Part shown: positions 12,381 through 29,115 of the stretch, in pieces
Layout of the letters: each line of letters starts with the position of its first letter
How positions within the stretch are numbered: position 1 is the first letter of the stretch
From: Candidatus Eiseniibacteriota bacterium
GTDB lineage: Bacteria > Eisenbacteria > RBG-16-71-46 > CAIMUX01
DNA: 64,000 nucleotides
Assembly (NCBI GenBank): GCA_903844735.1
Contig: CAIMUX010000087.1
Span: 4,738 to 68,737 of the forward strand
Reading direction: 5' to 3'
Notes under the pieces: model-generated
The model's input: the letters and a program-made list of their open reading frames with translations, nothing else
Told to the model about the DNA's origin: nothing
Database searches by the model: none
Program-made: the position numbers and the translations under genes

Positions 12381-13732
12381 GGTGCTCGGTGTTGTTTCTG
12401 GTGACGATGCTGTCAGCGGCGACCGCAACCGGAACCCCGCGAGCGTTTGCGGATCCGTCCGCCGGCGATACTCGAAGACCTGACGCAACGGCGCCGGCGC
12501 CCGGCACTCATGCTTCGGACGCCGGCGTGACTGTAGGCTCGTCGAGCGTGATCGACCCGGTCCCCCGCCCGATCACGCTGGAGGAAGCTGTGTCGATGGC
12601 GCGGCAAAACGCTGTGGCGGTCATCAAGGCCGCCGGGCAGAAGCAAACCAGCGACGCGGAGGTCCGCTCGGCCTACGCCGCTTTCTTACCGAGTGTCAGC
12701 CTCTCGGCGGGAACGCGTCAGTCGACCAGTGTGGCCGTCGGTTCGATCACGCTGTTCGAAGGGGGTCGGCGGATCTTCGAGCTGCAGCAGGCCCGGACGC
12801 GGCAGGCCTCGGCCGTGATCGACGGAACGACCCAAGCGTTTGTCGCAACCCTGGCGGCCAAGCAGCAGTTCTTCAACGTGCTGCAGGCGCGAGAGACCGA
12901 GATGGCGGCCAAGGCCCAGCTCGCTCAGGCCGAACAGCAGGGCCGCGTCGCCAATGCGAGGGTTCGGGCCAGAACGGCGACCCGTTCCGACTCCCTGCGG
13001 GCCGAGATCCAGGTACGCAGCGCCCGAATTGCGGTACAGAACGCGCGCGATGCAGCGAGCATGGCCGGCTCAGCGCTGACGCGCATCGTCGGTTCGCCGG
13101 ACCCGGTGACCGCCACAGAGGGTGACTCGCTCGGGTCTGCCGGCCTGGCGGTTACGGACGAGTCGCTTCGCGTCTTGGCCGAGAGTGGCCCGGATGTTCG
13201 CCAGGCGGAACAGGCGTTGTCGGCAGCCCAGACCGCGCGGCGCAGCGCGTGGGTCGGATACCTCCCGTCGGTGACCGCCTCCTACTCGCGTGGCACAGGC
13301 GGTGGGAGTGGGATCGCCTGGCAGGACGGAAGCGGTTTCTCCCCCACGGGTTCGATGCGGCTGTCGCTTTCGCTTCCCCTCTTCAATCAACTCCAACGGG
13401 AGGGACAGATCACGCAGGCGGAGGTCGCGGTCCACAACGCCGAAGCATCCCTGCGCGACGCGCGCCTGTCGGCCCGGGAGGTGATCTTCCAGTTGCTGGT
13501 CGCCTTCCGGTCGGCGCAGGACCGCGCCGCCTCGCAGGAACTCAATGTCGAAACCGCCGTGGAGGATCTCCGCGTGCAACAACTGCGCTACGCCGAAGGC
13601 GCGTCAACACTGCTCGATCTGCTCACCTCGCAGACCCAACTGGACCAGGCGCGCCGCGACTTGATCCAGGCCCGCTACGACCGGCGGGTGGTCAAGGCAC
13701 AGATCGAGGCGCTGGTGGGACGAGATCTCTAA
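12377..13732 (+). CDS. TolC-like outer membrane efflux protein (OEP family)
   Basis: 451 aa with signal [19 protein letters not shown]. Two coiled-coil/beta repeat halves typical of outer membrane factors ([15 protein letters not shown]..., [35 protein letters not shown]). 4-nt overlaps with both neighbours. Confidence 0.7.
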
Positions 13733-13743
13733 TGGAGGATGTG

Positions 13744-15201
13744 ATGCGACATAACAGCAAACGGCGACACCTGGTGCTATTCCTGGCCGGCCTCACGGTC
13801 GTGCCGGTCACGATCACTCTGGGGTGTGGCCTTCTGAAGCGCGGCGGGAAACAGCCCTCCGTCACCACGGAAGCCGCGGCCCGGCGTGACATCGCCGTGA
13901 CGATCGAGGCGACCGGCGTCGTCGAACCGGTGGACCTTGTGGAGGTGAAGTCCAAGGCATCGGGGCAGATTCTGCGGATGCCGGTGGAAGTCGGCTCCAG
14001 GGTGCGCGTCGGCGACCTGCTCGCGCAGATCGACACGGTGGACGTGCAGAACCAGTATGAACAGGCCTTCGCCGCCGAACGGGCTGCTCGGGCGAAGGTG
14101 GATGTCTCAGCCGCGCAGTTGAAACGGGCCGAGGAGTTGTTCGCCCAGCAGGTGATCACGGTGGTGGAGCACGAGAGTTCGACCCTGGACTACGCCAACG
14201 CGGAGTCGCAGCTCGTGAAAGCCCGCACCGATTTCGACACGGCGCGGCAGCGCCGGGCGGACGCCACCGTGCGGGCGCCCGTTGCGGGGACAGTCCTCCA
14301 ACAGCTCGTCTCGGCCGGACAGGTCATCGTTTCGGCCACCTCCTCGGTGAGCGGTGGCACGGCCCTGTTGCGCATGGCCGACTTGGCGCGGATCCGCCTG
14401 CGCGCTCTCGTCAGCGAGACCGACATCGGAAGCGTCAAGCCGGGCCAGGTCGCCACCGTCTCGATGGAAGCGTTCCCCCAGAGGTCGTTCCAAGGCACGG
14501 TCGAGAAGGTCGAGCCGCAGGCCGTGGTGCAGCAATCGGTCACCATGTTTCCGGTGCTCATCTCCATCACGAACGAGGATGGACTCCTCCTGCCCGGCAT
14601 GAACGGCGAGGTTTCGATGCAGGTCGATCATCGCGACAACGTTCTCGCCGTTCCTCTCGATGCGGTGCGCACGGTGCGCGAACTGCCTTCCGTCGCGGCG
14701 GCCCTCGGCATGAACGCCGACTCGGTGCAGGCGCAGTTGACGCGGCGTGTCGGAAGTCGCCGGATTCGGCCGCCTGGAACACCGGGAGATGCGGACTCGA
14801 CCCGCCGGCATGGCCCCGAAGGGTGGGGCGGCCGGAGTCGCGGCGCGGGCATGAACTCTCCGCCCAACGGTGGCCCCCCCACGGGTGCCGGCGGGACAGT
14901 GTCCGGGAACGGATCCCGCGGTGCTTCCGTTGAGGGCGCGAGCCGCGCTCAAGCGATCCTGATCAAGACGGCAAAGGGAATCGAGCCGCGGCTGGTCCGG
15001 CTCGGGCTCAGCGACTTTGATTATGCGGAGGTTCTGGGCGGCCTCGACGAAGGAGACCAGGTGGTGCTCCTGGGAGTCGTCGAGCAACAGACCAAGCGAA
15101 CGGATGAACAGAGCCAGATCCGGCAGCGCTTGAGCGGCGGTACGCCCGGCGCGCTGCCGGGCTCCGGCGGCGGCGGCCGGCCCTCCGGAGGAGGGCACTG
15201 A
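13744..15201 (+). CDS. Efflux membrane-fusion (periplasmic adaptor, HlyD/MacA family) protein with Gly-rich C-terminal tail
   Basis: GGAGGA RBS then ATG at 13744 (MRHNSKRRHLVLFLAGLTVVPVTI...), followed by a biotinyl/lipoyl-like and beta-barrel region (VTIEATGVVEPVDLVEVKSKASGQILRMPVEVGSRVRVGDLLAQID). The long six-frame ORF from 13249 is rejected because it overlaps the TolC-like gene. Confidence 0.75.
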   Translation: MRHNSKRRHLVLFLAGLTVVPVTITLGCGLLKRGGKQPSVTTEAAARRDIAVTIEATGVVEPVDLVEVKSKASGQILRMPVEVGSRVRVGDLLAQIDTVDVQNQYEQAFAAERAARAKVDVSAAQLKRAEELFAQQVITVVEHESSTLDYANAESQLVKARTDFDTARQRRADATVRAPVAGTVLQQLVSAGQVIVSATSSVSGGTALLRMADLARIRLRALVSETDIGSVKPGQVATVSMEAFPQRSFQGTVEKVEPQAVVQQSVTMFPVLISITNEDGLLLPGMNGEVSMQVDHRDNVLAVPLDAVRTVRELPSVAAALGMNADSVQAQLTRRVGSRRIRPPGTPGDADSTRRHGPEGWGGRSRGAGMNSPPNGGPPTGAGGTVSGNGSRGASVEGASRAQAILIKTAKGIEPRLVRLGLSDFDYAEVLGGLDEGDQVVLLGVVEQQTKRTDEQSQIRQRLSGGTPGALPGSGGGGRPSGGGH

Positions 15202-15202: not shown

Positions 15203-16426
15203 ATGATGCTCGGCGAAACCATGACCGTCGCTGTCGAGGCACTGCGCTCGAACAAGCTCCGCTCGCTCCTCACGATGCTGGGGATCGTCATCGGCGTCGC
15301 CGCGGTCATCGCCATGGTCGCACTGGGACGCGGCGCTCAGCAGTCGGTGAATCAGCGGATCGCCTCGCTCGGCACCACCCTCCTGACGGTCGTGCCCGGC
15401 CAGGCCCGCGGACCGGGCATGATCGCTTCCGGGTCGGATCGGGCCGCGTTGACGCTCGACGACGCGGTTGCCCTCGAAGACCGGTCCACGCACATTCTCG
15501 CCGTGCAACCGGAGATGTCGCGCCAGCTCCAGGTGCAGTACGAGAGCAAGAACACCAACACGACAATCGTCGGAACCACCGCCAACTACCTCGCGGTGCG
15601 AAAGTTCGCCATGGCGTCCGGCCGGATGTTCACCACAGGCGAAGACACCGCCCGGCGGCGGGTCGCCGTGCTCGGCTCCCAGGTGGTGCTCGACCTGGGC
15701 GTTTCGCCGGCATCCCTGCTGGTGGGCCAGGAAATCCGGATCGGCGGGATCCGGTTCGAGGTCGTCGGTCTGCTGGCATCGAAAGGACAAGGCGGCGGAT
15801 TCCAGAATCCCGACGATCAGGTGCTCATCCCGATCCAGACCGCCCGCTATCGCCTGATCGGCGCCGATCGCCTGCGATCAATCAGCGTCCTGAGTCCGTC
15901 CGAGACCGAGATCCCGGCCACCATGGCCGAGATCGAAAAGATCCTTCGTCGCGAACACCGCCGGACCACCGGCCAGGTCAATGATTTCTCGATCCGCAAC
16001 CAGGCCGACTTCCTTGCGACCCTGGGCGAAACGACCAAGGTGTTCACCTACCTCCTGGCCGGGATCGCCGCCGTGAGCCTGCTCGTCGGCGGCATCGGGA
16101 TCATGAACATCATGCTGGTCTCCGTGACGGAGCGAACACGGGAAATCGGGGTGCGCAAGGCGCTCGGCGCGACGCAGGGCAACATCCTCCTGCAGTTTTT
16201 GATCGAAGCGATGGTCCTATGTCTGCTGGGCGGTGTGATCGGCATCGGCGTCGGAACCGGGGCGGCGACCATCCTGCGGATTGCGTTCAAGTGGAACACC
16301 TCCGTCGGTCCCTCGTCGGTGCTGGCGGCGTTTGGGTTTGCGGCCGTCGTGGGGATTCTCTTCGGGGTGTGGCCGGCGCGGAGAGCGGCGGCGCTCGATC
16401 CGATTGAGGCGTTGCGGTATGAATAG
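15203..16426 (+). CDS. ABC transporter permease (MacB_PCD + FtsX domain)
   Basis: 407 aa starting MMLGETMTVAVEALRSNKLRSLLTMLGIVIGVAAVIAMVALG. It has a large periplasmic domain and a C-terminal FtsX-like 3-TM bundle (REIGVRKALGATQGNILLQFLIEAMVL...). Confidence 0.85.
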   Translation: MMLGETMTVAVEALRSNKLRSLLTMLGIVIGVAAVIAMVALGRGAQQSVNQRIASLGTTLLTVVPGQARGPGMIASGSDRAALTLDDAVALEDRSTHILAVQPEMSRQLQVQYESKNTNTTIVGTTANYLAVRKFAMASGRMFTTGEDTARRRVAVLGSQVVLDLGVSPASLLVGQEIRIGGIRFEVVGLLASKGQGGGFQNPDDQVLIPIQTARYRLIGADRLRSISVLSPSETEIPATMAEIEKILRREHRRTTGQVNDFSIRNQADFLATLGETTKVFTYLLAGIAAVSLLVGGIGIMNIMLVSVTERTREIGVRKALGATQGNILLQFLIEAMVLCLLGGVIGIGVGTGAATILRIAFKWNTSVGPSSVLAAFGFAAVVGILFGVWPARRAAALDPIEALRYE

Positions 16427-16888: not shown

Positions 16889-19546
16889 TCAGATCTCGAA
16901 GTGGTGCGAGACCTTCACCATTACGATGTTGTTCGCCGGCGTCCGGCCCAGCGCGGACAGTGACGGCCGCAGGCTGAAGTCGCCGTCGCCCGTGAGACCC
17001 GTGCGGTCTTGCGTCCACACCACGTAGAGCGCCGAGCCCGGTGCGTACTCCCAGCGCAACACCGCGTCACCGCGCACCGTGCGGTACGTAAAATCCGGGT
17101 GTCCCAGGTCGATCGACGGCGCGGGACCCGCACCGTCCGGGTCGGCGATCACGTCCGCGTCGCCCGAGCCACCCGAAATCGTAGAGCCGCCGTCGCGCCC
17201 GTACGCGAGGAAATCGTACGCGCTCGCGCGGGCCAGTTCGCGGAACTCCGCGTAGCGCCCGGAAGACACGAGCGGCTGCACGTACAGTTGCACGGTCAGG
17301 TGCGACGTGAGCGAGCAGTCCAGACGCGCCGTGGCACCCATGGTGGTCTGCTTCAGTCGGGCAAACACATAGCGGCCGCCGTCGGTGGCCACGGCGAGCG
17401 GATCATCCGCCCGGGTCACGTACTGCGCGTCCTGGCGATTGAAGTCGAACGACGGCCCCGCCGAGAACGACAGGTTCGATGATGGCTTCCATGTCACCGC
17501 GGGATTGATCGGAATGTCCAGCGAGCCCACAACGTCCCCGCTCGGGTTCACCTCCGCGGAAGGGAATAGCCTGGACTGGCCGTTCGTGTCCCAGTACAGG
17601 TCGCCCCACCACGCGCGCGGCTGGAGCATCGCCGGCCCGCCGCGGGTCATGCGATCGCTGTAGGCGCGACCCATCCACCCACCGGAGGCCTGCCAGCTCC
17701 ACGCGTTGACCTGCTCAAGGCTCGACTTGAGGAACAACTGGTTCATCGTGTGCAGGCCGCCGAAATCCCAGCTCTGCGCCACCGCGCCGATCACCCACCA
17801 GTAGTTGCGCCACGCCTTGGGCTTGTCCCACATGTACCCGAAACCGACGTGGCCGTTGATGACGTCCGAGCGCGAGCCGAAGCCCAAGTCGTTGACATCA
17901 TAGCCGGGCGTGAGGAAGCCGACCGCGGAGTTGCTCATCCACGGCCCTTTCTGCCGGTTCACCCACACGCGAGCGCCCACGCCGGTGAGCGCGGTCGCGT
18001 TCGCGTCCACGCCGAGGTCGCCCCGCTCCGGGCGCTGGTAGTAGTGCTGCGGGCTGCGCTCAAGCGCCGCAATGCGCGCGGCGGTCCCATCGACGCGGGT
18101 GGCCGAGACGTGGCCGGAAAGCACCCAGGTCTTCTGCGGATCGAGGGCGGTCCAGCCGTCGACCGCCGTCACGAAACCGTTGCGGTTGAGCTGGTCCGGG
18201 AGCGATGTGCCCTCCAGCGCTCGCGCGGTCTCCATGGCCATGATCCCCAGCCCCTGCCGCTCGCCGTGGAACGAACACATGCCCCGCAGCACGCCGTAGT
18301 ACGTGAGCGGCTCAACGGTCGCCGAGTGCCGGCTGCCGTCCCCGAGCTGGTAGTCCGCCGCTTCCTCGCGCGTGATCGCGTGCAGCATGCCGACGTTCCA
18401 CCGGGGCGCGGGCTGCCCGGTGAGCTTGACCGCGCCAAGAATGTGCGTCGCGACGGGCATGTCGGCGTACACGGCGCCGCCGGGTACGCCGCCCTGCGGC
18501 GTGCGGCCGATGCGCCGCGTGTAGAAGAACGTCGGTTCGGGCCAGTCGAAGTTCCAGTAGTCGCTCGCACCGTTGTTCCCGCAGCGGAACACCGGCAGCC
18601 CATCGGTGAAGAACGGGCGCTTCTCGCCGTAGTAGGTCTCGACGTCGGACAGGTTCACGACTGCAGGATCGATCTCGACCTGTCCGAAGTCCGGATTGAG
18701 GGTGGCATTGAGCGTGAGGCGCGAACCGACGTTGGTGCGCAGGTCGCCGCCGATCGCGGGCGTGTAGTGGCCGCCGGCGCGGAACGGATCGCCGGGAGTG
18801 TGCACGAGGTAGGACGCCTTGCCCGTGGCGTACGGCGTCACCTCGACGACGTGCGAGGTCCTCACTCCATCAAGGCCGACGAGGTCGGGGAACCGCGACA
18901 CATAGCCGCTCTGGCCGCGCGGCGTGTAGACGATCTTGTCGTCCTCGCGCGTGCGGGAGATGGTGCGCGCGAAGTTGACGCCCCAGACCATGTGCTCGCC
19001 GCCGCGGCAGCGGATCTGTGAGAACGGGAAGCGCATTTCGGCGGTCCAGCCCAGCGAGTCGCGCTGCACACGGCCGTTCCACACGCCGTCCCACGAGTCG
19101 TCGCCCCAGTCATCGTTCATGAGCGTGCCGTCGAGCTGCGTCCCCGCCGCGGTCAGGGTGAGGTAGTAGGCCGTGCGGCGATCGCGGAACGTGTCGAAGG
19201 CGACGGCGAACGCGTCCGAGCCACCGTCGCTGTCGCGCCGCGAGAGTCTCGCCACGATCGAATCGGGGTGCGTGTCCCACATGCGCGCGCCAACGTAGAC
19301 CGCGTCGTCGTCGTATGCGATGCGCACCTCGGTGCGCTGCGAGGGCTCGCTGCCCTGGTGCGGGTCGTTCTGGCGGAACGCCATGACGGCGTCGGCCGAC
19401 CTCCACACCGGCTCGTCGAGGATGCCGTCGACGACGATCGGGCCGGTCCGGCGTACCGCACGCACGGGCTGCGGGCGCGAGGCATCCGTCGCGTACGCGA
19501 GGGCCGCGGCGGACAGCACAAACGAAAGGGCGAGTATCCAGCGCAT
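16889..19546 (-). CDS. CBM9-like/DUF5916-family secreted protein (putative outer-membrane-associated)
   Basis: Internal Met gives signal MRWILALSFVLSAAALAYA (ATG ending 19546). The N-terminal region VVDGILDEPVWRSADAVMAFRQNDPHQGSEPSQRTEVRIAYDDDAVYVGARMWD resembles the carbohydrate-binding family 9-like fold. The long beta-rich remainder ends in aromatic residues (HHFEI). Confidence 0.5.
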   Translation of the reverse strand: MRWILALSFVLSAAALAYATDASRPQPVRAVRRTGPIVVDGILDEPVWRSADAVMAFRQNDPHQGSEPSQRTEVRIAYDDDAVYVGARMWDTHPDSIVARLSRRDSDGGSDAFAVAFDTFRDRRTAYYLTLTAAGTQLDGTLMNDDWGDDSWDGVWNGRVQRDSLGWTAEMRFPFSQIRCRGGEHMVWGVNFARTISRTREDDKIVYTPRGQSGYVSRFPDLVGLDGVRTSHVVEVTPYATGKASYLVHTPGDPFRAGGHYTPAIGGDLRTNVGSRLTLNATLNPDFGQVEIDPAVVNLSDVETYYGEKRPFFTDGLPVFRCGNNGASDYWNFDWPEPTFFYTRRIGRTPQGGVPGGAVYADMPVATHILGAVKLTGQPAPRWNVGMLHAITREEAADYQLGDGSRHSATVEPLTYYGVLRGMCSFHGERQGLGIMAMETARALEGTSLPDQLNRNGFVTAVDGWTALDPQKTWVLSGHVSATRVDGTAARIAALERSPQHYYQRPERGDLGVDANATALTGVGARVWVNRQKGPWMSNSAVGFLTPGYDVNDLGFGSRSDVINGHVGFGYMWDKPKAWRNYWWVIGAVAQSWDFGGLHTMNQLFLKSSLEQVNAWSWQASGGWMGRAYSDRMTRGGPAMLQPRAWWGDLYWDTNGQSRLFPSAEVNPSGDVVGSLDIPINPAVTWKPSSNLSFSAGPSFDFNRQDAQYVTRADDPLAVATDGGRYVFARLKQTTMGATARLDCSLTSHLTVQLYVQPLVSSGRYAEFRELARASAYDFLAYGRDGGSTISGGSGDADVIADPDGAGPAPSIDLGHPDFTYRTVRGDAVLRWEYAPGSALYVVWTQDRTGLTGDGDFSLRPSLSALGRTPANNIVMVKVSHHFEI

Positions 19547-19837
19547 GCGACGGCTCCATTCGCTTCCGGTCGGCGTACCTGAGACGGGGCGCGCGGACGG
19601 CATCCCGCACCTACGGGCCTGACTCTTGAAGCGTACCGGAAAAGTGCCGGGCTGCGCCAGGAAGGTGCACGCCGCTTGCCGGGCTTCTTCGGCAACTCGG
19701 TTTCTGCTAGACTCCGCACCTGGGCTGGACGAGGAAACGAGAGCCTGCGTCCGTGGCCCTACGTAGCGATTCAGGCGGAAGTCGTGGGAGACTTGCGACT
19801 CTCGGCGAAGTCCCGGTTGCCCGAAGGGAGCGAGGAC

Positions 19838-20653
19838 ATGGGAGACATCGATCCGACCGTCCAGTATCACATTCACCTGAAGAAGGGCGACGTCGGCTGG
19901 TACGTTATCCTACCGGGTGACCCGGGACGAGTGCCGCAAATCGCGGCATTCTTCGATTCGGCGCACGAGGTCGCGTTCAATCGCGAGTTCCGCACGTACT
20001 CGGGCACCGTCGACGGCATCAAGGTCTCCTGCACCTCCACGGGTATCGGCTGCCCTTCAACGGCCATCGCGATCGAGGAACTGATCAAGGTCGGCGCCGA
20101 CACTTTCATCCGGGTCGGGACAGCAGGATCGCTGCAAGACGAGGTCGGGCTCGGGGATCTCTGCATCACGACCGGGGCCGTACGGGAGGAGGGCACGACG
20201 CGGCAGTACGTGCCTCTCAGCTACCCCGCGGTGGCGGACGTCGACGTGGTTTGCGCGCTGAGGGACGCCGCGCGTGGGCTCGGGTTCAAGCACCACACGG
20301 GCATTTCCCACTGCAAGGACGCATTCTTCATCGAGGGAGACTGCGATATCCCGATCGAGGACGAGAACCGATCGATGTGGAAGGCTTGGCGCCGGTCCAA
20401 TGTGCTCTCGACGGCCATGGAGTCGGCGGCGCTTTTTGTGGTGTCGTCGATCAGGTCCGTCCGCGCGGGCGAGATTCTCGCCGTCATCGGTCTCACGTTC
20501 GAGGACCGCCCGATTGTCGGCAAGATGGGTATCGATGACGCCATCAAGACAGCCATCGAGGCGATCAAGATCCTCGATCGATCCGATAGGATGCAATCGG
20601 GCCTCGGCCATCGTCCCCCACCGCCAAGCCCTAAGGAGGAACACCGACCGTGA
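19838..20653 (+). CDS. udp: Uridine phosphorylase (PNP/UDP family 1)
   Basis: ATG 19838 after GGGAGCGAGGAC. Clear similarity to E. coli Udp: AIVPGDPDRV, REFTTW, CSTGIGGPSTSIAVEEL...TFLRIGTTGA and FPAVADFE are matched here by ILPGDPGRV, REFRTY, CTSTGIGCPSTAIAIEEL...TFIRVGTAGS and YPAVADVD. The 19676 ORF start is an unsupported extension. Confidence 0.8.
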   Translation: MGDIDPTVQYHIHLKKGDVGWYVILPGDPGRVPQIAAFFDSAHEVAFNREFRTYSGTVDGIKVSCTSTGIGCPSTAIAIEELIKVGADTFIRVGTAGSLQDEVGLGDLCITTGAVREEGTTRQYVPLSYPAVADVDVVCALRDAARGLGFKHHTGISHCKDAFFIEGDCDIPIEDENRSMWKAWRRSNVLSTAMESAALFVVSSIRSVRAGEILAVIGLTFEDRPIVGKMGIDDAIKTAIEAIKILDRSDRMQSGLGHRPPPPSPKEEHRP

Positions 20654-22989
20654 GCCTCAAGTTCGTCGGCAAGAACATCACGCGCCCCGACGCCATCCAG
20701 AAGGCAACCGGCAAGGCGCGCTTCCTGGCTGACATCCATCTACCAGGCATGCTGTACGCCGCCATTCTGCGGCCCGGCTACGCCCACGCCCGGATCATTT
20801 CGATCGACACCACCGAGGCCGAGACGAGCGAGGGCGTCGTCAAGGTTGTCACCGGCAAGGGGTGCTCGGACAAGTACCGCTATGGCGACAACATCCGCGA
20901 TCTCGTACCCATGGCAGACGAGAAGGTCCGCTACATGGGCGAGCCCCTGGCAGCGGTCATCGCAGGAAACCCCCACCAAGCCAAGCAGGCGCTGAAGAAG
21001 ATCAAGGTCGAGTACGAGCCACTGCCGGTCTATACACAGGCCCTGGACGCGTTGGCTCCCGGGGCGGCCCTGATCCACGAGGACAGCGGCAGCTACTGGC
21101 ACCTGCCCGGCGTGGGTCCGAAACCGGGCACCAACATCGCGAACCACTACCGCCTGCGCAAGGGGGACGCCGAGAAGGGTCTCCGGGAATCGGATGTCGT
21201 CGTCGAGGCCGAGTTCAAGTACCCCTTCGGCTCCTGCGCGGCCCTCGAGCCGCACGGCGCGATCGTCTGGTTCCAGGAGGATGGGATGATCGAGATCTGG
21301 TCGTCCTCGATCTGCCCGTTCATCATCCGCGAGGAGGTCGCCCGCGTCTACGAGCGGCCGGAGTCGGACGTCCGCGTACACATCCCCGAGGTCGGCGGCT
21401 GCTTCGGCTACAAGTCCGACATCACGGTGGAGCAGACCATCGCCTACATCGCCGGCTTCGTGCCGGGACATCCCGTCAAGTGGGTCGCCTCCCGCAAGGA
21501 GGACTTCACCAGCACGCTTCTGGGCCACGGGATGATCATCCGCATGAAGATCGGTGCCATGAGCGACGGCCGGCTCATGGCCCTGAAGACGACCATTTAC
21601 CATTCCACCGGCGCGTATTCCGACACCGGGGTTCACGTTTCCATCGCCGCCGCGCACAACTCCACCGGCGCGTACGAGTACCCCCACTGCGATCTCGAAT
21701 CGATTCTCACCTACACGAACACGCCGGCGGTCGGTGCCTTTCGCGGCTACGGCCACCCCGAGGCTCAGTTCGCGCAGGAGCGGCTGATCGACATCCTGGC
21801 TCGCAAGCTGAAGATGGACCCGTTCGTGCTGAGGGAAAAGAACTACCTCGGTCCGGGCAAGGTAACCGCCCTCGGCGAGCGACTCCATCAGACCAACGGC
21901 GATCTGCGCAAGTGCTCGGACATCATCAAGAAGGCGGTCTTCGAGAAACCCAAGCAAGAGGAGGACAGCGAGTACTACTACGGTCGCGGCTTCGCCGCAG
22001 TCATGAAGTCGCCCAAGGGAGCGCCGTTCTCCTCGAAGAGCGCCTACGTCAAGTTCAACACCGACGGCAGCGTGGTCATCAACTGCGGCGGCGCCGAGGT
22101 CGGTCAGGGCCTGCGCAACGTGGTCCGCCTGGTCGCCGCCGAGACGCTCAAGATCGCGCCCGAGCGCATCCATGTTTATACCGAAATCGACACCCAGTTC
22201 TCCCCCTGGGAGTGGCAGACCATCGGCTCAATGTTCACCAAACAGGGCGGGCGCGCGGTCATGCGGGCGTGTCAGAAGACCATCGAGCAGATGAAGCACA
22301 CCGCCTCGCAGGTGCTGCGCTGCGACGTCGACCTCCTCGAATACGACGGCGAGTACGTCTACCTCTCGTCGGACCCGTCGATCCGCGTCGAGGTGACCAA
22401 ACTCGTCCGCGGCTACATGTACGAAAACGGCATGGTTGTCGGCGAAGTCGTGCAGGCCTGCGCCGATGCGCGTTTGCCGCGCTACTCGGGCTTCGACGAA
22501 AATGGCCAGGGATCGATGGGCGTTTCGTACACCTTCGGCGCGCAAGCGGCGGAGATCCGCATCGAGAAGAGCACGGGCAAGATCACGGTCGATCACTTCG
22601 CCTCATCCTTCGACGTCGGACGGGTCATCCAGCCGCAGCAGATCCGGGGTCAGGTGACAGGCGGCGTGATGATGACCATCGGCGCGGCACTCTTCGAGGA
22701 GGTGCGCTTCGACGAGACCGGCAAGTGCGTCAACCCGTATTTCTCGAAGTACCGATTCCCCACGATCAAGGACGCGCCGCTTAGGCAGACGGTGCAGATG
22801 GTCGAGACGCCGGGGACCATCGGTCCTTTCGGGGCGCGCGGCATCGGCGAACACCCGGTCATCGGACCGCCGCCGGCCATTCTGAACGCCATTTACGACG
22901 CGACGGGCATCGAGTTTTTCGAGATCCCGGTAACCCCCGACAAGATGAAGAAGGCTCTCGACGAGAAGGCAGCCGGAGGGAACACGTGA
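20650..22989 (+). CDS. Molybdopterin-dependent hydroxylase large (MoCo-binding) subunit, xanthine dehydrogenase/aldehyde oxidase family
   Basis: 779 aa with the Ald_Xan_dh N-terminal domain and MoCo-binding regions (GCFGYKSD, AVGAFRGYGHPEAQFAQERLID, GARGIGEHPVIGPPPAILNAI). 4-nt overlaps with udp and the small subunit. Confidence 0.85.
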   Translation: MSLKFVGKNITRPDAIQKATGKARFLADIHLPGMLYAAILRPGYAHARIISIDTTEAETSEGVVKVVTGKGCSDKYRYGDNIRDLVPMADEKVRYMGEPLAAVIAGNPHQAKQALKKIKVEYEPLPVYTQALDALAPGAALIHEDSGSYWHLPGVGPKPGTNIANHYRLRKGDAEKGLRESDVVVEAEFKYPFGSCAALEPHGAIVWFQEDGMIEIWSSSICPFIIREEVARVYERPESDVRVHIPEVGGCFGYKSDITVEQTIAYIAGFVPGHPVKWVASRKEDFTSTLLGHGMIIRMKIGAMSDGRLMALKTTIYHSTGAYSDTGVHVSIAAAHNSTGAYEYPHCDLESILTYTNTPAVGAFRGYGHPEAQFAQERLIDILARKLKMDPFVLREKNYLGPGKVTALGERLHQTNGDLRKCSDIIKKAVFEKPKQEEDSEYYYGRGFAAVMKSPKGAPFSSKSAYVKFNTDGSVVINCGGAEVGQGLRNVVRLVAAETLKIAPERIHVYTEIDTQFSPWEWQTIGSMFTKQGGRAVMRACQKTIEQMKHTASQVLRCDVDLLEYDGEYVYLSSDPSIRVEVTKLVRGYMYENGMVVGEVVQACADARLPRYSGFDENGQGSMGVSYTFGAQAAEIRIEKSTGKITVDHFASSFDVGRVIQPQQIRGQVTGGVMMTIGAALFEEVRFDETGKCVNPYFSKYRFPTIKDAPLRQTVQMVETPGTIGPFGARGIGEHPVIGPPPAILNAIYDATGIEFFEIPVTPDKMKKALDEKAAGGNT

Positions 22990-23465
22990 TGCCCGAGAAG
23001 ATCACCTTGACCGTCAATCATGTCCCCTGCACCGTCGAGATCGAGGGGTGGGAGAGCCTCCTCGACGTGTTGCGCGATCGCATCGGCTTGACCGGGACGA
23101 AGCAGGGGTGTGACGACCTGTCGTGCGGCGCCTGCACCGTCGTGGTCAACGGCGAGGCCGTCAAGAGCTGCAAGATGTCCGCAACGCGAGCCGCCGGCGC
23201 CGACGTGGTGACCATCGAGGGGCTCGCGCAGGGGACCACGCTCCACCCCATCCAGGAGGCTCTCATCGAGGCAGGCGCCGTGCAGTGCGGCTTTTGCATT
23301 CCGGGCATCGCCATGGGACTCTATGGTCTCTTCAATAAGAACCTCGACGCCGGCGATCAAGAGATCCTCGACGCGCTCGAGGGTCACCTCTGTCGCTGCA
23401 CCGGCTACGAATCAATCCTCGAGGGTGCGAAGCTCGCCCAGAAGAAGCTCAAGGCCCGGCTCTAA
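22986..23465 (+). CDS. [2Fe-2S]-binding small subunit of molybdenum hydroxylase (CoxS/XdhC family)
   Basis: 159 aa with both cluster motifs CDDLSCGACTVVVNGEAVKSC and QCGFCIPGIAMGLYG ... HLCRCTGY. Confidence 0.85.
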   Translation: MMPEKITLTVNHVPCTVEIEGWESLLDVLRDRIGLTGTKQGCDDLSCGACTVVVNGEAVKSCKMSATRAAGADVVTIEGLAQGTTLHPIQEALIEAGAVQCGFCIPGIAMGLYGLFNKNLDAGDQEILDALEGHLCRCTGYESILEGAKLAQKKLKARL

Positions 23466-23536
23466 CCCGGACGAACCGACTCAATCACTCTCACGGCCGA
23501 TCGCAAGACGCCGATCGCGCCAGAGGAGGCTCACCG

Positions 23537-24754
23537 ATGGCATTCGATATCGTCATTCAAAACGCGCGGCTCCGTCACCAGACGGGAACGGTCGACATCG
23601 GCATCGAGAAGGGCATCATCCAAGAGATCGGGAAGCTCGACGGCAAGGGCGCATCGGTCATCGACGCCGGCTCGAACCTGGTGACGGAGTCCTTCGTCAA
23701 CACCCACCTCCACCTCTGCAAGGTCTACACGCTGACCATGATGGACTCCCAGGCCCTCACCTCGTATCACGGCGAGGGAATGGGGGCGGCGATGACCGCC
23801 ATCGAACTGGCGGCGCGGATCAAGGAGCGTTACGACGAGACCTGGATCATCAAGAACGTGCGCAAGTGCCTGAAGTTGGCGGCGATCAACGGCAACACCC
23901 ACATCCGCGCCTTCGCCGATGTCGACTCGAAGGCCAAACTTATCGGCCTCAAGGCGCTGCTCCGGGCCCGCGAGGAATTCAAGGGAATCGTCGACGTGCA
24001 GGTGGTCGCGTTCCCGCAGGACGGCGTGGTCCGCGAGCCGGGCACTGTCGACCTCATCAAGGAGGCGATGGACCTCGGGGCCGACGTCGTCGGCGGCATC
24101 CCGTGGATCGAGTACACCGAGGCCGACGAAAAGACACACATCGACGAGATGATGAAGATCGCGCAGAAGCACGATGCCGACATCTCCATGCTCGTCGACG
24201 ATGCCGGCGACCCCGGGCTGCGCACTCTCGAAATGCTGGCCGTCAAGACCATCGAGACCGGACGCATCGGACGCTCGCTCGCCCACCACGCGCGGGCCAT
24301 GGCGCTCTACCCGGAGCCCTACTTCCGCAAAGTCGCGGCGCTTCTCAAGAAGGCGCAGATGGGCGTGGTCTCGGATCCCCACACCGGTCCGCTGCACGCG
24401 CGGGTGCGCGATCTCCTGGCCAACGAGAACCTCGTCTGCCTCGGGCAGGACGACATCTGCGATGCCTACTACCCGTTCGGTCAGAACAGCATGCTCGAGG
24501 TCGGGTTCCTCAACGTCCACCTTCTGTGGATGACCACCTTCCCGGAGATGGAAACGATCTATGACATGCTGACGGTGAACGCCGCGCGCTGCATCAACCT
24601 CAAGAACTTCACCCTACAGGTCGGCGCGCCGGCCAACATCGTCGTCCTCGACGGCCGCTCGGTCTACGAGGCACTCTGGTACCACCGCCCGCCGCTTTAC
24701 GTCGTCAGCCACGGCAAGGTCATTGACCGCAAGGCCATGGAGTCGGAGGAGTAG
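23537..24754 (+). CDS. Cytosine deaminase-like amidohydrolase (CodA family)
   Basis: Metal-binding HxH (FVNTHLHL) and a long collinear match to E. coli CodA: IDLQIVAFPQEGIL...LGADVVGAIPHFEF is matched by VDVQVVAFPQDGVV...LGADVVGGIPWIEY, and FGHDDVFDPWYPLG by LGQDDICDAYYPFG. Confidence 0.8.
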   Translation: MAFDIVIQNARLRHQTGTVDIGIEKGIIQEIGKLDGKGASVIDAGSNLVTESFVNTHLHLCKVYTLTMMDSQALTSYHGEGMGAAMTAIELAARIKERYDETWIIKNVRKCLKLAAINGNTHIRAFADVDSKAKLIGLKALLRAREEFKGIVDVQVVAFPQDGVVREPGTVDLIKEAMDLGADVVGGIPWIEYTEADEKTHIDEMMKIAQKHDADISMLVDDAGDPGLRTLEMLAVKTIETGRIGRSLAHHARAMALYPEPYFRKVAALLKKAQMGVVSDPHTGPLHARVRDLLANENLVCLGQDDICDAYYPFGQNSMLEVGFLNVHLLWMTTFPEMETIYDMLTVNAARCINLKNFTLQVGAPANIVVLDGRSVYEALWYHRPPLYVVSHGKVIDRKAMESEE

Positions 24755-25062: not shown

Positions 25063-25473
25063 CTATAGCTCTTCTCTCACGTAGCTCCCGGGACTCCTGG
25101 CAACCGCCGGGAACGCCGCAAGAACCTGGCGATCCGACGTCACCAGGGGAACGCCGAGTTGTTCAGCCAAGGCGACGAACTCGCAGTCATAGGCAGAACA
25201 GACTGATTCCGAGACCAAGCGAAGCACTCGCTCCGATCGCACCAGGTATTCTCGACCCAGAAGCAGACTCTCAGCCTTCCGCTGCAAGGATAGCGCGTCC
25301 GTCAGGGATACTTCCCGCTTGCGGACATACTGGGCCAGGACACTGCGAAACTCACTGCGCCACAAGAAGGGGGCCGCCCACTCCGGGTCGCGGAGGAAGA
25401 CCTCCCGCGCGAGGACCGTGCCGGAACCTCCAAGAAGCAGGTGGGCCAGCAGGTTCGTGTCGGTGACGATCAA
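25063..25473 (-). CDS. vapC: PIN-domain ribonuclease toxin VapC
   Basis: PIN N-terminal motif (L)IVTDTNLLAHLL with acidic residues further on. The probable TTG start overlaps the vapB stop (TTGA). The longer annotated ORF start at 25611 overlaps vapB and is rejected. Confidence 0.65.
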   Translation of the reverse strand: MIVTDTNLLAHLLLGGSGTVLAREVFLRDPEWAAPFLWRSEFRSVLAQYVRKREVSLTDALSLQRKAESLLLGREYLVRSERVLRLVSESVCSAYDCEFVALAEQLGVPLVTSDRQVLAAFPAVARSPGSYVREEL

Positions 25474-25712
25474 GGCCGACCCTTGGCTTTGGCACGCCGG
25501 ATGGCAGTGTCGGTCAATGGGCTCAGAGCCACGCGGCGTCGGAGTCGATCGACTTCGGCCAACCATGCCTTGGGATCGACGACCGGGGCGTTGGCCGCCT
25601 GTTCCAGGCATGTGATGATCTCGCTGTTGAGACTCCGGCGATGGAGCACCGCCCTGCGTTTGAGCCGGCCGAACAGCTTGTCGGGGATGCCCTTGATGGT
25701 TACGCTGGGCAT
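25470..25712 (-). CDS. vapB: Ribbon-helix-helix antitoxin VapB (Arc/CopG/FitA-like)
   Basis: 80 aa MPSVTIKGIPDKLFGRLKRRAVLHRRSLNSEIITCLEQA, typical of RHH antitoxins. Sits directly upstream of and overlapping the PIN gene. Confidence 0.7.
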   Translation of the reverse strand: MPSVTIKGIPDKLFGRLKRRAVLHRRSLNSEIITCLEQAANAPVVDPKAWLAEVDRLRRRVALSPLTDTAIRRAKAKGRP

Positions 25713-25966: not shown

Positions 25967-27490
25967 CTACTCGCGCGGGGGAAGCGCCAGGCACTTCTCG
26001 TAAAACTCCACGCGCCGAGGCTCGAGGATCGGGCGCGGGGCCACGGCTGCACCCAGCTCCAGTAGCCGCGGCTCGCCGGGATCGAACGCCGGCCACTCCG
26101 GCAATCCCGGACCGTTCGGATCTCCCGTCCGGGCGAAGCGGACCCAGTACGCCGCGAGCGTCTCGGACAGGCGGCGATCGGCATCCTGCCAGGGACGCTG
26201 CAGCAGCCGGAGGTTCGCGAATGCATAGGGCACGTCCGAGGTGTGGAACGCGCCGAACTCCGGATGCTCGGGCCAGGGGATGCCGCGCGTGAAATAGTAC
26301 GCGTGCAGTGGCGCGTGGTCCCGCTCGGCGCGCGTGCGCGCCCACTGCAGGGTCCGGAGGAGCTCGAAGTCGCGCCTGCTCTGCTTCTGCGCGAGCCCGG
26401 CCTGCTCGTCGTTCGAGAACGGATAGAGCTGCAACGCCTCGTCCGCCAGCGTGTCCGGGAGCGAGCGTGCAAACGCCTCGAATGCCGCGGCCGTGACCTT
26501 TCCGTACGTGGGATCACTGCTGCCTTCGTCCGCGGTCATGCCATAGAGGATCGGCACGTCGTTCACCGGAGCGGTCGGTCCGTTCGCGGGAAGGCACCAG
26601 CCGTCCGCCACGAGCCCGAAGGGCCCACCGACCATGGTCCCGGAGGCCGCCAACCCGCGCAGCGCCGAGAGTGAGCTGTCCGGGAACGTCCTCGCCCACG
26701 CCGCACCCGCCTGCTCCGCCTCGGCGAGCGGCGGGTATCCGTCGGACGCGCCACCACTCATCAGGATGACGCGGTGAAAGAGCCCGGTCGCCAGGGGCGA
26801 GCGAATCAGCGCGGCGGCCAGCTCGGCGCCCGAAGACTGCCCGGCGAGCGTCACGCGATCGGGGTCACCACCGAAGGCCGCAATGTTCCGCCGGACCCAC
26901 TGCAGGGCGGCGATGCAATCGAGCAGCCCGTAGTTCCCACAGACGTGCCGCGGGGACTCCGCGCTCAGCCCTGGATGCGCGAGAAAGCCGAGTGCGCCCA
27001 GGCGGTAGTTGACGGTCACCACCACGAGGCCGCGACGAGCGAGTTGGGCGCCGTCGTACACAGCCACCGCGCCGGATCCTCCGGTCAGCGCGCCGCCGTG
27101 CAGCCACACGAGCACCGGGCGCTTCGCACTGTCTGGAGATTGCGCGGTCCAGAGGTTGAGGTCGAGGCAGTCCTCACTCGTCCGCTCCTGCGTGACGAAC
27201 TCCGCCGTCCAAGGCGGCGCGGACCATGGCACCTGCTGGCAGCACGGAGCGACGCTGTCGGCCTTGCGCACACCGCTCCAGGCCAACGGCGGCTGCGGCG
27301 GCTGCCACCGGAGCTCCCCGACCGGCGGCCGCGCATAGGGCACCCCCCTGAAGACGAGGACGCCGGGCACGCCGCTCGGGACGCCTTCGATCCCCCCGCT
27401 CTCGATATGCACCACGGCCGCCTGCGCCGGGGACGGCGACGACCCCACCAGCGCCAGTGCGAGAAGCCGGGCGACGACCCGAGCTCGCAT
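25967..27490 (-). CDS. Secreted carboxylesterase (type B carboxylesterase/lipase family)
   Basis: Internal Met gives signal MRARVVARLLALALVGSSPSPAQA (start 27490). Motifs FRGVPYARPPVGELRW, oxyanion WLHGGAL, and catalytic GESAG-like LAGQSSGAE. Confidence 0.8.
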   Translation of the reverse strand: MRARVVARLLALALVGSSPSPAQAAVVHIESGGIEGVPSGVPGVLVFRGVPYARPPVGELRWQPPQPPLAWSGVRKADSVAPCCQQVPWSAPPWTAEFVTQERTSEDCLDLNLWTAQSPDSAKRPVLVWLHGGALTGGSGAVAVYDGAQLARRGLVVVTVNYRLGALGFLAHPGLSAESPRHVCGNYGLLDCIAALQWVRRNIAAFGGDPDRVTLAGQSSGAELAAALIRSPLATGLFHRVILMSGGASDGYPPLAEAEQAGAAWARTFPDSSLSALRGLAASGTMVGGPFGLVADGWCLPANGPTAPVNDVPILYGMTADEGSSDPTYGKVTAAAFEAFARSLPDTLADEALQLYPFSNDEQAGLAQKQSRRDFELLRTLQWARTRAERDHAPLHAYYFTRGIPWPEHPEFGAFHTSDVPYAFANLRLLQRPWQDADRRLSETLAAYWVRFARTGDPNGPGLPEWPAFDPGEPRLLELGAAVAPRPILEPRRVEFYEKCLALPPRE

Positions 27491-27861
27491 ACCAACCTCC
27501 AACGCGCAGCACAAACTCGTCTGCGGATCAGCGACTTCATCACCCCCGGGCGCCCCTCGCCCCACTGCGAACCGCCGAACAGGACTATGACCGACCTCCG
27601 GGGGCGAATGGAAGACCCATCCCCCGACGGGGAGCGCGGCGAGAAACCACTCGCCGGGTGCATTTCGCTGGATGCACCACCAGCCCTGATGACAGGGCGA
27701 GTGTTTGGAGCGGATGATCTTCTTCGGGGAGAGTCCGTTGAGAAACGCCGCCATGCTACTCTTCCCGGGGCGGGCGAAGGGATGCGGCCCGATGAGGCGA
27801 GGGAACAGAGACACGGCCGGACGGCGCGAGCGAGCAGGGAGCCGGCACAGAGGAGGATGCG

Positions 27862-29115
27862 ATGACCTGCTGCCAGCGTGTGGTGTTCGGAGTGCTGCTG
27901 ATGATCGCCACGGCGAGACCCGGCCTGTCCCAACCGCCGGAGCCGGCCGCGAAGGGGGAACCGGCGGCCGCCGCGTCGGCTGTGCCGGTTTCCGGGACCA
28001 TCCAAGTGCCGGGCGGGTTGCTCTTCTACGAAGTGATGGGGCAGGGCGACTGGCTGGTCCTCATCCACGACGGGATGCTCCACCGGGAGACCTGGGACGC
28101 GCAGCTTGCCCCCTTCGGCCGGTACTTCAAGGTGGTTCGCTACGACCGGAGAGGCTACGGACGCTCCCCCGCTCCCACCGCGCCGTTCTCGGACCTGGAT
28201 GACCTGTACGCTCTCTTCACCCAGTTGCAGATCGACAAGGCTTGTCTGGTCGGCATGTCCGCCGGGGGAGGGCTGTCGATCGACTTCACCCTGGCTCATC
28301 CGGAAAAGGTAGACGCGTTGGTTTTGGTCGGAGCCGTCGTCAGCGGCTATGGATACAGCATGCACATGGCCACCCGGGGCGGACATCTGACGAGGGAAAT
28401 ACTGTCTGATCCAGTACGAAACCGGCAGTACTGGTGCGCGGAGGATCCCTACGTGGTCGCACCCCAGAACACCGCCGCCCGGGAAAGAGTCAAGGCGCTG
28501 CTCGAGGCCAATCCTCAGAACCTGGACAACACGGCGGGTGCCCAGGCCCAACCGCCTCCGCGCCCGGCCCTAGGGTTCCTCGGGGAGATCACGGCGCCCA
28601 CCCTGATCCTTGTCGGGGAGCAGGACATTCCCGATGTGCATGCCCACGCGGGGGCCATCCAGGCCGGGATCCATGGCTCGCGCCGGGTCATCATCTCCGG
28701 AGCAGGACATCTGATTCCCCTGGAGCAGCCCGAGGCTTTCAATGCCGAAGTCCTGTCGTTCCTCCAGGCCCGCGGCCTGGAAGCCGCCCTCGATGCGGGC
28801 AAGACCGAGGACATCCAGCGCATCCTTCGCCGGATCCGGGAACAGGACCCGGCGCCCAGCCCTCGGCTCGAGGCGACGGTGAATCTGCGGGCCTACCGGT
28901 TTCTCCAGGATGGGCACACCGACGACGCCCTGGCACTGTTCCGGATCGCGGTGGAGATCTTCCCGGATTCCTGGAATGCCTACGACAGCCTGGGTGAAGG
29001 CTACGCGGCCAAGGGACAAAAGGAGCTCGCCGTGAAGGCGTACAAGAAATCGCTGGAGCTGAACCCGGCGAACGACAACGGGCGGGAGGCGCTGAAGCGT
29101 CTGGAGGGTCCGTAG
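27862..29115 (+). CDS. Secreted alpha/beta-hydrolase-fold protein with C-terminal TPR repeats
   Basis: GGAGGA RBS and signal MTCCQRVVFGVLLMIATARPGLSQ. Hydrolase core VLIHDGMLH and nucleophile elbow GMSAGG. The C-terminus has TPR-like repeats (AYDSLGEGYAAKGQKELAVKAYKKSLELNP). Confidence 0.75.
   Translation: MTCCQRVVFGVLLMIATARPGLSQPPEPAAKGEPAAAASAVPVSGTIQVPGGLLFYEVMGQGDWLVLIHDGMLHRETWDAQLAPFGRYFKVVRYDRRGYGRSPAPTAPFSDLDDLYALFTQLQIDKACLVGMSAGGGLSIDFTLAHPEKVDALVLVGAVVSGYGYSMHMATRGGHLTREILSDPVRNRQYWCAEDPYVVAPQNTAARERVKALLEANPQNLDNTAGAQAQPPPRPALGFLGEITAPTLILVGEQDIPDVHAHAGAIQAGIHGSRRVIISGAGHLIPLEQPEAFNAEVLSFLQARGLEAALDAGKTEDIQRILRRIREQDPAPSPRLEATVNLRAYRFLQDGHTDDALALFRIAVEIFPDSWNAYDSLGEGYAAKGQKELAVKAYKKSLELNPANDNGREALKRLEGP

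Follow-up and report, generated by a model that had tools for sequence, protein, structure and literature searches.

A molybdenum hydroxylase operon without FAD subunit that may oxidise pyrimidine bases from scavenged nucleosides in uncultured, mostly anaerobic bacteria

A 64,000-nucleotide stretch of DNA from Candidatus Eiseniibacteriota bacterium (assembly GCA_903844735.1, contig CAIMUX010000087.1, positions 4,738 to 68,737; the whole stretch is called the window below) contains an operon that encodes a phosphorylase of the uridine phosphorylase (UP) family, the large and small subunits of a molybdenum enzyme of the xanthine dehydrogenase (XDH) family and an amidohydrolase, here called Amh, that resembles both CodA and AtzC. 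Gene content and genomic context support a function as a nucleoside/nucleobase catabolic unit. We see about an even chance that this function is the oxygen-independent oxidative breakdown of pyrimidine bases from scavenged nucleosides, with a C6-hydroxylase and an aminohydrolase as the core enzymes. Gene identities, synteny, the absence of a flavin adenine dinucleotide (FAD) subunit, altered residues and neighbouring genes were observed, and from these we infer every substrate and reaction direction given below.

Four open reading frames (ORFs) with the same orientation span positions 19838-24754 of the window, as read from the sequence and its ORFs:

19838..20653, + strand: nucleoside phosphorylase, uridine phosphorylase family (NP-I, similar to UP of Streptococcus pyogenes), 271 aa; PF01048 (PNP_UDP_1)
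20633..20653, + strand: coupling junction, with an AAGGAGG Shine-Dalgarno sequence inside the phosphorylase gene and a GTGA stop/start overlap with the Mo subunit; direct sequence reading
20650..22989, + strand: XDH-family molybdopterin-binding large subunit (Mo subunit), 779 aa; PF01315, PF02738, PF20256 (Ald_Xan_dh_C, MoCoBD_1, MoCoBD_2)
22986..23465, + strand: [2Fe-2S] small subunit, 158-159 aa; PF01799 and PF00111 (Fer2_2, Fer2)
23466..23536, + strand: 71-nt intergenic spacer with a GAGGAGG ribosome-binding site and no overlap; direct sequence reading
23537..24754, + strand: CodA/AtzC-like amidohydrolase Amh, 405 aa; PF07969 (Amidohydro_3)

A preliminary description of this DNA had all four genes coupled by 4-nt overlaps. 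This is true for the phosphorylase and Mo genes and, depending on the start codon, for the Mo and Fe-S genes, where the junction GTGATG gives an overlap of 4 nt with a GTG start at 22986 or of 1 nt with an ATG start at 22989, but not for Amh, which follows the spacer and has its own ribosome-binding site. The gene families and coordinates that had been proposed are correct; none of the enzymes is canonical, as judged by residues and curated cutoffs.

In the route that we propose, the UP-family phosphorylase would split uridine and/or cytidine into ribose-1-phosphate and the base. The two-subunit Mo/[2Fe-2S] enzyme would hydroxylate C6 of the base with water, converting uracil to barbiturate or cytosine to 6-aminouracil, and the electrons would leave via the Fe-S clusters to a low-potential carrier (ferredoxin or flavodoxin), as in the FAD-less aldehyde oxidoreductase (MOP) of Desulfovibrio gigas. 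Amh would remove the exocyclic amino group. If it acted ahead of the Mo enzyme, cytosine would become uracil; if it acted later, 6-aminouracil would become barbiturate, a carbon counterpart of the AtzC reaction from ammelide to cyanurate. Within the window the pathway would stop after this third step. Related genomes add genes for uptake to the core, either for a nucleoside ABC importer of the Bmp type or for a UraA-type permease, and further those for a cyclase-family hydrolase, FdrA/AllG carbamoyltransferase-like proteins, a CN-hydrolase, a CoA-transferase and a thiolase, which would fit a conversion of ureidomalonate, the product of barbiturate ring opening, to carbamoyl phosphate and malonyl- or acetyl-CoA.

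The core of the operon is widely conserved. Hundreds of relatives of the Mo large subunit, with 67-98% identity, are present in metagenome-assembled genomes of Riflebacteria, Elusimicrobia, Lentisphaerota, Hydrogenedentota, Kiritimatiellae, Anaerolineae, Myxococcota and others, host lineages that we take to be mostly anaerobic. A scan of species-level genomes identified 32 orthologous loci with 62-86% identity, followed by a sharp fall to 38% or less. The gene order Mo large subunit, Fe-S subunit, Amh recurs in about ten uncultured phyla (Riflebacteria, Elusimicrobia, Hydrogenedentota, Verrucomicrobiota, Chloroflexota, Caldisericota, Muiribacteriota and others) and this recurrence is beyond chance: the Fe-S gene lies directly 3' of the Mo gene in 29 of the 32 ortholog loci and Amh is the next gene in 24. 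A phosphorylase ortholog is found within 10 kb in 12 loci, and a Bmp-type nucleoside ABC transporter adjoins the core in six.

Several neighbours of the orthologous operons act on pyrimidines. A cytidine deaminase (cdd) flanks the core or the phosphorylase in the loci L003/L034, L009, L017 and L035 (we number loci with the prefix L); in L017, L009 and L035 it is an equivalog (TIGR01354/NF004064) and in L003/L034 a gene with a Pfam cytidine/dCMP-deaminase domain. The gene directly 3' of Amh in L017 encodes a CodB cytosine-permease equivalog (528 bits, cutoff 326).

Other features of these loci were recorded. In L007, the closest relative of the window, a stretch of 33 amino acids between the phosphorylase and the Mo gene (9856-9954) is 58% identical to cytidine deaminase and looks like the relic of a lost cdd gene. 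In four ortholog loci, the position of Amh after the Fe-S gene is taken by a 131-aa Cys-rich protein with three CxxC pairs that matched no family (L016 12823-13230; L019 3133-3531; L020 6506-6814; L038/L005 13022-13330), and in L005/L038 an additional ORF of 55 aa separates the Mo gene from the Fe-S gene. The neighbours of the Caldisericota operon are V-type ATPase genes and were dismissed as pathway genes.

Membership of the molybdenum enzyme in the XDH family is clear: the large subunit has an a/b-hammerhead, two molybdenum-cofactor-binding domains and the catalytic Glu, and its partner has the Cys motifs for two [2Fe-2S] clusters (C-x4-C-x2-C-x11-C and C-x2-C...C-x-C in the translation). 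The catalytic Glu (GIGEHP) aligns with Glu869 of D. gigas MOP and with VGEPP of the canonical XdhB at locus L091, and presumably corresponds to bovine Glu1261. The Mo subunit reaches no NCBIfam equivalog. Its best match is XdhA, with 461 bits and a cutoff of 780; the XdhA, PucD and XdhB models gave 461/780, 422/916, 394/784 and 254/850 bits (score/cutoff), 4-hydroxybenzoyl-CoA reductase (4-HBCR) 443/995, glyceraldehyde dehydrogenase 412/790 and the carbon monoxide (CO) dehydrogenase models 303-305 bits with cutoffs of 950-991. Among PDB structures the top match is the alpha subunit of 4-HBCR, and the Mo subunit is about equally distant (~1e-82 to 1e-70) from 4-HBCR, 6-hydroxypseudooxynicotine dehydrogenase (Kdh), CoxL and quinoline oxidoreductase (Qor); MOP (1e-64) and XDH (1e-51) follow.

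Differences to the canonical enzymes are obvious within the active site. In an alignment with the L091 XdhB equivalog (1290 bits), Glu802, Arg880 and Phe914 (bovine XDH numbering, as we assume) are replaced by Ser, Ala and Tyr, with GGKE changed to GYKS and NDRTMFH changed to SIAAAHN around the first two, which are presumably the residues that orient the purine. A canonical XDH was ruled out by the absence of Glu802, Arg880 and FAD. CoxL of aerobic CO dehydrogenase has the active-site loop VAYRCSFR with a Cu-binding Cys; at this site the Mo subunit reads GAFRGYGH, and the missing CSFR loop rules out a CO dehydrogenase. In a crude neighbour-joining tree, which carries no support values, the clade groups with a 50%-identical relative from Wallbacteria inside a group of uncharacterised enzymes from like contexts, apart from E. 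coli XdhA and XdhD, canonical XdhB, PucD-like enzymes and a CoxL-group enzyme of Embleya. On these comparisons the Mo subunit is a distinct, uncharacterised clade.

The absence of the FAD-binding medium subunit had been noticed before and is confirmed: tblastn searches with four FAD subunits and E. coli XdhB/YgfM found none in the 64 kb. A FAD subunit adjoins nearly all paralogs of the Mo subunit and none of the 32 orthologs; the sole match, in L013, is part of another set of genes that is paralogous to the operon. The lack of FAD thus characterises the clade as a whole. The same cofactor set, Mo and two [2Fe-2S] clusters without FAD, is found in D. gigas MOP (1sij/1vlb), which also has the catalytic Glu869 and the motifs GG-x-FGYK and FRGYG: the clade signature GGCFGYKS resembles GGTFGYKF of MOP, and FRGYG is common to both. 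Unlike the operon enzyme, which is encoded by two genes, large then small, MOP is a single polypeptide with an N-terminal Fe-S domain; furthermore, it is not the closest structure (1e-64 versus ~1e-82) and the context of the operon is nucleoside catabolism. The XDHs (XdhAB of Rhodobacter capsulatus, XdhABC of E. coli, PucCDE of Bacillus subtilis) share superfamily, domain set, catalytic Glu and the nucleobase-catabolic context, but the operon enzyme differs by the absent FAD subunit, the replacement of Glu802/Arg880/Phe914, scores of 254-461 bits with cutoffs of 780-916 and a separate branch in the tree.

The phosphorylase matches PF01048 at 3.9e-37 and falls just short of the uridine phosphorylase equivalog TIGR01718 (277.3 bits, cutoff 280.3). 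Its nearest solved structure is UP of S. pyogenes (SpUP; 3qpb) with 1e-66 and 47.6% identity, and in the alignment to SpUP the loop insertion at the base pocket has the length typical of UPs. Lys162 of SpUP, which we take to contact O2 of uracil, is kept. Gln168 and His169 (Gln166 and Arg168 in E. coli UP, with His169 presumably equivalent to Arg168), which we assume to read the N3/O4 side, are replaced by Glu and Gly (CKDAFFIEGD) in 13 of 13 Mo-linked orthologs; residue numbering was verified against the chain index of 3qpb. Of these uracil-reading residues only Lys is kept, and the position-4 side of the pocket is altered. The earlier assignment as udp stands for the UP-type family and Lys162 but not for the residues that read O4. 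An acceptor in place of hydrogen-bond donors at the position-4 side would favour a base with a 4-amino group, for example cytosine, in analogy to the Asn/Asp switches of purine nucleoside phosphorylases.

Amh is almost equally close to AtzC (1e-49) and CodA (1e-44) among PDB structures and misses all curated cutoffs, including those of the cytosine-deaminase subfamily models (254/438 and 220/483 bits, score/cutoff). Its motifs are HLHLCK, AFPQDG, SMLVDDAG, AHH and GQDD. Of the four metal ligands of CodA (His61, His63, His214, Asp313), HxH and Asp are present and His214 is not: this strand-5 ligand (His217 in AtzC) is Leu in 24 of 24 genome orthologs, a pairing on which HMMER, MAFFT and BLAST alignments agree. 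CodA Glu217 is changed to Asp, and the motif SMLVDDAG with both replacements was read in 81 of 83 metagenome relatives. Gln156, His246 and Asp313-Asp314, which hold the 2-oxo-4-aminopyrimidine in CodA, are all retained, and so is Lys65 of AtzC. AtzC has a metal site of His60, His62, His217 and Asp303 and contacts its substrate by Lys65, Gln160, His219 and Asn304 (PMC4577212); from this set Amh has Lys65 and Gln160, with Leu for His217, Asp for His219 and Asp for Asn304. Compared with both enzymes, Amh shares the fold, HxH, Gln156/Gln160, His246/His249 and Asp313/Asp303, resembles CodA in Asp314 and AtzC in Lys65, and differs throughout the family in the third metal ligand and in Glu217. The preliminary description had called it a CodA homolog, which is appropriate for the fold and for Gln156, His246 and Asp314 but leaves out the absence of His214 and Glu217 and the equal similarity to AtzC. 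By its alignments, the Amh family is a large CodA/AtzC-like family that misses a metal-binding His.

Three candidates for relatives or functions of Amh were rejected. Guanine deaminase was discarded because locus L091, which has an Amh ortholog, already contains a GuaD-type gene and because the Gln of Amh is CodA-type Gln156 and not GuaD-type. A Chloroflexi enzyme from a profiling study of the CodA cluster (PMC12828455) has an AtzC-like His-His; the common substrate 'compound 15' of that study is cyanuric monochloride and uninformative for Amh. On the atrazine plasmid pADP-1 (L172, 42491-48738), a distant CodA-like amidohydrolase adjoins a BMP-family ABC transporter, the same pairing as in the loci studied here; it was rejected as a relative, with 20% identity and the His/Glu pair retained.

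A metagenome scan seeded with Amh gave 80 further loci. When only well-flanked Amh loci are considered (at least 5 kb on both sides, n=17), an XDH-family large subunit is found within 10 kb in 11 and in none of the other six; in all Mo-linked Amh loci, the Mo large subunit is usually 40-150 nt from Amh. Cytosine is a plausible substrate of Amh, ahead of the Mo step, because of these six loci with no nearby Mo enzyme; a substrate other than cytosine is suggested by the AtzC-like Lys and the altered catalytic set. In the extended clusters L133, L139, L145, L149 and L168, two or three different XDH-family enzymes each are encoded, in the order permease, FAD-FeS-Mo subunits, Amh, second Mo subunit, Bmp-ABC transporter, cyclase-family hydrolase (PF04199) and a conserved unknown protein of 229 aa, followed by thiolase (with DUF35), FdrA, AllG (DUF1116), CN-hydrolase and a family-III CoA-transferase. 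A locus of the ortholog group itself, L026 (14153-19433), has the same tail: CoA-transferase, Bmp-ABC transporter, Mo, Fe-S, Amh, unknown, thiolase, DUF35, FdrA and CN-hydrolase. The extended clusters possibly represent a complete nucleobase pathway that has no barbiturase. The FdrA/AllG enzyme could reasonably produce carbamoyl phosphate and malonamate, because ureidomalonate is the one-carbon homologue of oxalurate, the substrate of AllFGH; such a step, followed by an amidase, the CoA-transferase and a thiolase-type enzyme, would be chemically reasonable.

UraA-type permeases are encoded in L133, L155, L157 and L040. Their motif of the GEN..AITR type reads YGENNSLMAITR, compared to YGENIGVMAITR in UraA and FAQNNGVIQMTG in XanQ. 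The permeases of the extended clusters keep the equivalents of UraA E241/H245/E290 and are 35-37% identical to UraA versus 22-24% to XanQ.

The classical oxidative pyrimidine pathway consists of cytosine deaminase, uracil/thymine dehydrogenase (EC 1.17.99.4), barbiturase and ureidomalonase and is found in aerobes of the Rhodococcus/Mycobacterium type. The dehydrogenase activity has been known since the 1950s, the route has been thought to be a speciality of aerobic actinomycetes, and we know of no gene assigned to uracil dehydrogenase. The operon shares with this pathway a cytosine-deaminase-type enzyme and a Mo hydroxylase that would act on a base; it differs in its hosts, which are uncultured lineages, in lacking a gene of the barbiturase or amidase-signature families and a FAD subunit, and in a deaminase homolog without His214 and Glu217. 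A barbiturase and a ureidomalonase beside the dehydrogenase are found neither in the window nor in the ortholog loci: tblastn searches (E<=1e-3) with AtzD and with AtzE and AtzF, amidase-signature probes that stand in for ureidomalonase, were empty in the 64-kb window, as the preliminary description had stated for the vicinity of the operon, and also in the ortholog loci. Neither the window nor any of about 170 related loci has an AtzD/barbiturase homolog.

Two clusters of interest came from a search of plasmid records with AtzD. The first, on plasmids of enterobacteria, combines an AtzD-family hydrolase with an NCS2 permease, DUF2877, FdrA, DUF1116 and carbamate kinase; in the Klebsiella aerogenes plasmid NZ_CP103667.1 (L177, 10713-19642) this cluster has a QN-type permease motif and IS26 borders, and a 56%-identical AtzD-family gene is present on many Citrobacter, Klebsiella and Enterobacter plasmids. 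The second cluster was found in a member of the Streptomycetaceae:

~8200-43900 of L179 (Embleya sp., NZ_CP108785.1): unannotated candidate oxidative pyrimidine cluster

This region encodes XdhC, FdrA, a PucR-like regulator, a RutG/UraA-like permease, FAD-FeS-Mo subunits, CoxG, a canonical CodA (560 bits, cutoff 483), a CN-hydrolase 49% identical to that of L168, an AtzD-family hydrolase, carbamate kinase and a CoA-transferase (45% identical), and its gene content looks like the classical route from cytosine via uracil to barbiturate. The large subunit is assigned to 'CoxL group 5' (NF040766, 1512 bits), a hint at pyrimidines as substrates of some 'form II/group 5 CO dehydrogenases'. The extended clusters, L026 of the ortholog group among them, have several protein families in common with the Embleya region: XDH-family Mo enzyme, pyrimidine-type permease, CodA-type deaminase, FdrA, CN-hydrolase and CoA-transferase. 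The Mo enzymes of Embleya and of the operon are 27% identical.

Conservation of the core, the coupling of phosphorylase and Mo subunit, cdd, CodB, the UraA-type permeases and the Embleya cluster together favour a pyrimidine as the substrate. So do the UP-type phosphorylase with its Lys162, the CodA residues Gln156, His246 and Asp313-Asp314 in Amh and the loss of the purine-orienting Glu802/Arg880 from a Mo subunit that has kept its catalytic Glu. The preliminary description had proposed that the cluster funnels cytosine and uridine to barbiturate; the nucleobase context and the recurring pyrimidine neighbours (cdd, CodB and UraA-type permeases) agree with this, but the enzymes are non-canonical and Amh also occurs in a purine cluster. 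Several observations weigh against pyrimidine oxidation. By its sequence, the phosphorylase is no proven uridine phosphorylase, given the lost O4-reading residues, and Amh is no proven cytosine deaminase because it has lost two residues essential to CodA; in E. coli, codA itself is annotated as cytosine/isoguanine deaminase. If the phosphorylase indeed preferred cytidine, a cytidine deaminase next to it would be redundant. No characterised gene or sequence of a uracil/thymine dehydrogenase was found in the literature for comparison, and no barbiturase, FdrA, AllG or cyclase gene is present in the window. The Mo subunits beside the Amh family belong to several clades, including PucD-like ones that have kept Glu802. 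Finally, in L091 (GCA_947259725.1, 1529-17232) an Amh ortholog with 70-71% identity is located between an SsnA-like gene and canonical XdhA/XdhB, and in L097 Amh is also next to an SsnA-like gene. L091 is the observation that conflicts most with a pyrimidine substrate.

The last points would suit a purine version of the operon, in which the phosphorylase would cleave a 6-amino purine nucleoside, the Mo enzyme would be a purine hydroxylase (for example, adenine to isoguanine or hypoxanthine to xanthine) and Amh would deaminate an aminopurine (isoguanine to xanthine, a reaction shared with E. coli CodA). The L091 cluster (YgeW-like, two YgfK, SsnA-like, the XdhA/XdhB equivalogs, an unknown protein of 159 aa and a near-cutoff guanine-deaminase homolog, with no adenine enzyme) is, by its gene content, the reductive urate pathway of PMC12507026. 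In that pathway E. coli XdhD reduces urate to 2,8-dioxopurine before the amidohydrolase SsnA, a relative of PydB, cleaves the ring (PMC12507026). The operon and the E. coli cluster (XdhD-YgfM, YgfK, SsnA) both combine an XDH-family enzyme with an amidohydrolase, in the operon presumably also under anoxia; they differ in that the Mo clade of the operon is distinct and has no FAD subunit. Moreover, where probes for YgfK and SsnA were part of the search, neither was detected in the window or at the 32 ortholog loci (YgeW and YgeX were not seen in the window either). XdhA as the best NCBIfam match of the Mo subunit and the Gln to Glu change in the phosphorylase pocket, which would also suit a 6-amino purine, point in the same direction. 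Nevertheless, we consider a purine substrate unlikely: guanine or adenine deaminase, DeoD/PunA and xanthine permease were not seen in any of the 32 ortholog loci, whereas cdd and CodB are present, the phosphorylase retains an insertion of the UP type as well as the Lys that binds O2, Glu802 and Arg880 are missing from the Mo subunit, and the permeases of the extended clusters are not of the XanQ type.

The other explanations reassign single enzymes. Amh could open the barbiturate ring to ureidomalonate, replacing the barbiturase that is missing from the window and its ~170 related loci; no other partner accompanies the Mo enzyme as constantly as Amh, its catalytic set is unlike that of deaminases (Leu for His214, Asp for Glu217) and the PydB-related SsnA sets a precedent for ring cleavage. 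We think this quite improbable, as the six well-flanked Amh loci with no Mo enzyme nearby rather suit a common base as substrate, the retained Gln156 and Asp314 hold an exocyclic amine/oxo pattern and the extended clusters have a separate cyclase-family hydrolase for ring opening. It is very improbable that there is no shared pathway at all, with phosphorylase and CodA-like enzyme in pyrimidine salvage and the Mo enzyme a co-transcribed MOP-like aldehyde oxidoreductase, as its cofactor set and the GGCFGYK and FRGYG motifs would allow: adjacency of Mo large subunit, Fe-S subunit and Amh is found in about ten phyla, often without phosphorylase, the Mo subunits of the well-flanked Amh loci are mostly adjacent to Amh, upp was not found with the window panel, and MOP is not the closest structure. 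The Mo enzyme could also work in reverse, as a ferredoxin-driven dehydroxylase like 4-HBCR or E. coli XdhD that strips an oxo group and thereby weakens the ring for hydrolysis by Amh. The best PDB match, the urate reduction by XdhD and the presumed anaerobic life of most host phyla would be compatible with such a reaction, but the FAD-type electron-input subunits of 4-HBCR and XdhD are absent from the operon, no reductase partner is conserved and the similarity to 4-HBCR is no higher than that to several oxidising enzymes, so that we regard it as very improbable, too.

Oxygen-independent pyrimidine oxidation may also be put in a more specific form: a FAD-less, ferredoxin-linked C6-hydroxylase of uracil/thymine (or cytosine) would act together with a new kind of CodA/AtzC-like aminohydrolase, with only three metal ligands from the protein, and a UP-family phosphorylase retuned to a 4-amino pyrimidine (cytidine), and would, with the genes of the extended clusters, form a complete barbiturase-free pathway that yields carbamoyl phosphate (ATP) and acetyl-CoA and is widespread in uncultured anaerobic phyla and soil bacteria. 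We offer this form tentatively and consider it rather doubtful.

The genes that flank the operon on both sides are on the opposite strand and unrelated to it. Upstream, an ORF of 995 aa (16889-19876, - strand) has a DUF5916 and a weak CBM9 match and no NCBIfam match; its listed start overlaps the start of the phosphorylase by ~39 nt and the true start is probably further in. Just downstream of Amh, a PIN-domain gene (25063-25473, - strand) and a FitA-like ribbon-helix-helix gene (25470-25712, - strand) probably form a toxin-antitoxin pair, which is also present on an identical short contig (L087). Further genes in the window are an efflux pair of a MacA-like membrane-fusion protein (13249-15201, + strand), with an N-terminal extension of ~190 aa ahead of the conserved portion, and a MacB-type permease (15203-16426, + strand), and an alpha/beta-hydrolase fused to TPR repeats (27862-29115, + strand), which is overlapped by 4 nt by a preceding ORF of 363 aa without family match (26774-27865, + strand). 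A lone tRNA gene (57488-57559, - strand) is the sole Rfam match in the window; Rfam found no riboswitches in the window or in seven ortholog loci, and a scan of promoters and terminators gave no signal exceeding shuffle expectation. The tblastn panel found none of upp, uraA, xanQ, guaD, ssnA, cdd, codB, Bmp transporter, FdrA, AllG, cyclase-family hydrolase and AtzD in the 64-kb window.

The labels uridine phosphorylase, xanthine/CO dehydrogenase and cytosine deaminase should not be used for these proteins ahead of an assay, as judged from their alignments: all three enzymes deviate at defining residues. Whatever the substrate, the operon presents two enzyme puzzles, a large CodA/AtzC-like family without the metal-binding His and a UP-like phosphorylase in which the base pocket is altered. 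If pyrimidine oxidation is the true function, genes would be assigned to an orphan EC number, uracil/thymine dehydrogenase, and thousands of annotations as 'CO/xanthine dehydrogenase' and 'cytosine deaminase' would be corrected. Fermenters from ten or more little-known phyla would then be able to oxidise the pyrimidine ring in the absence of oxygen as they scavenge nucleic acids.

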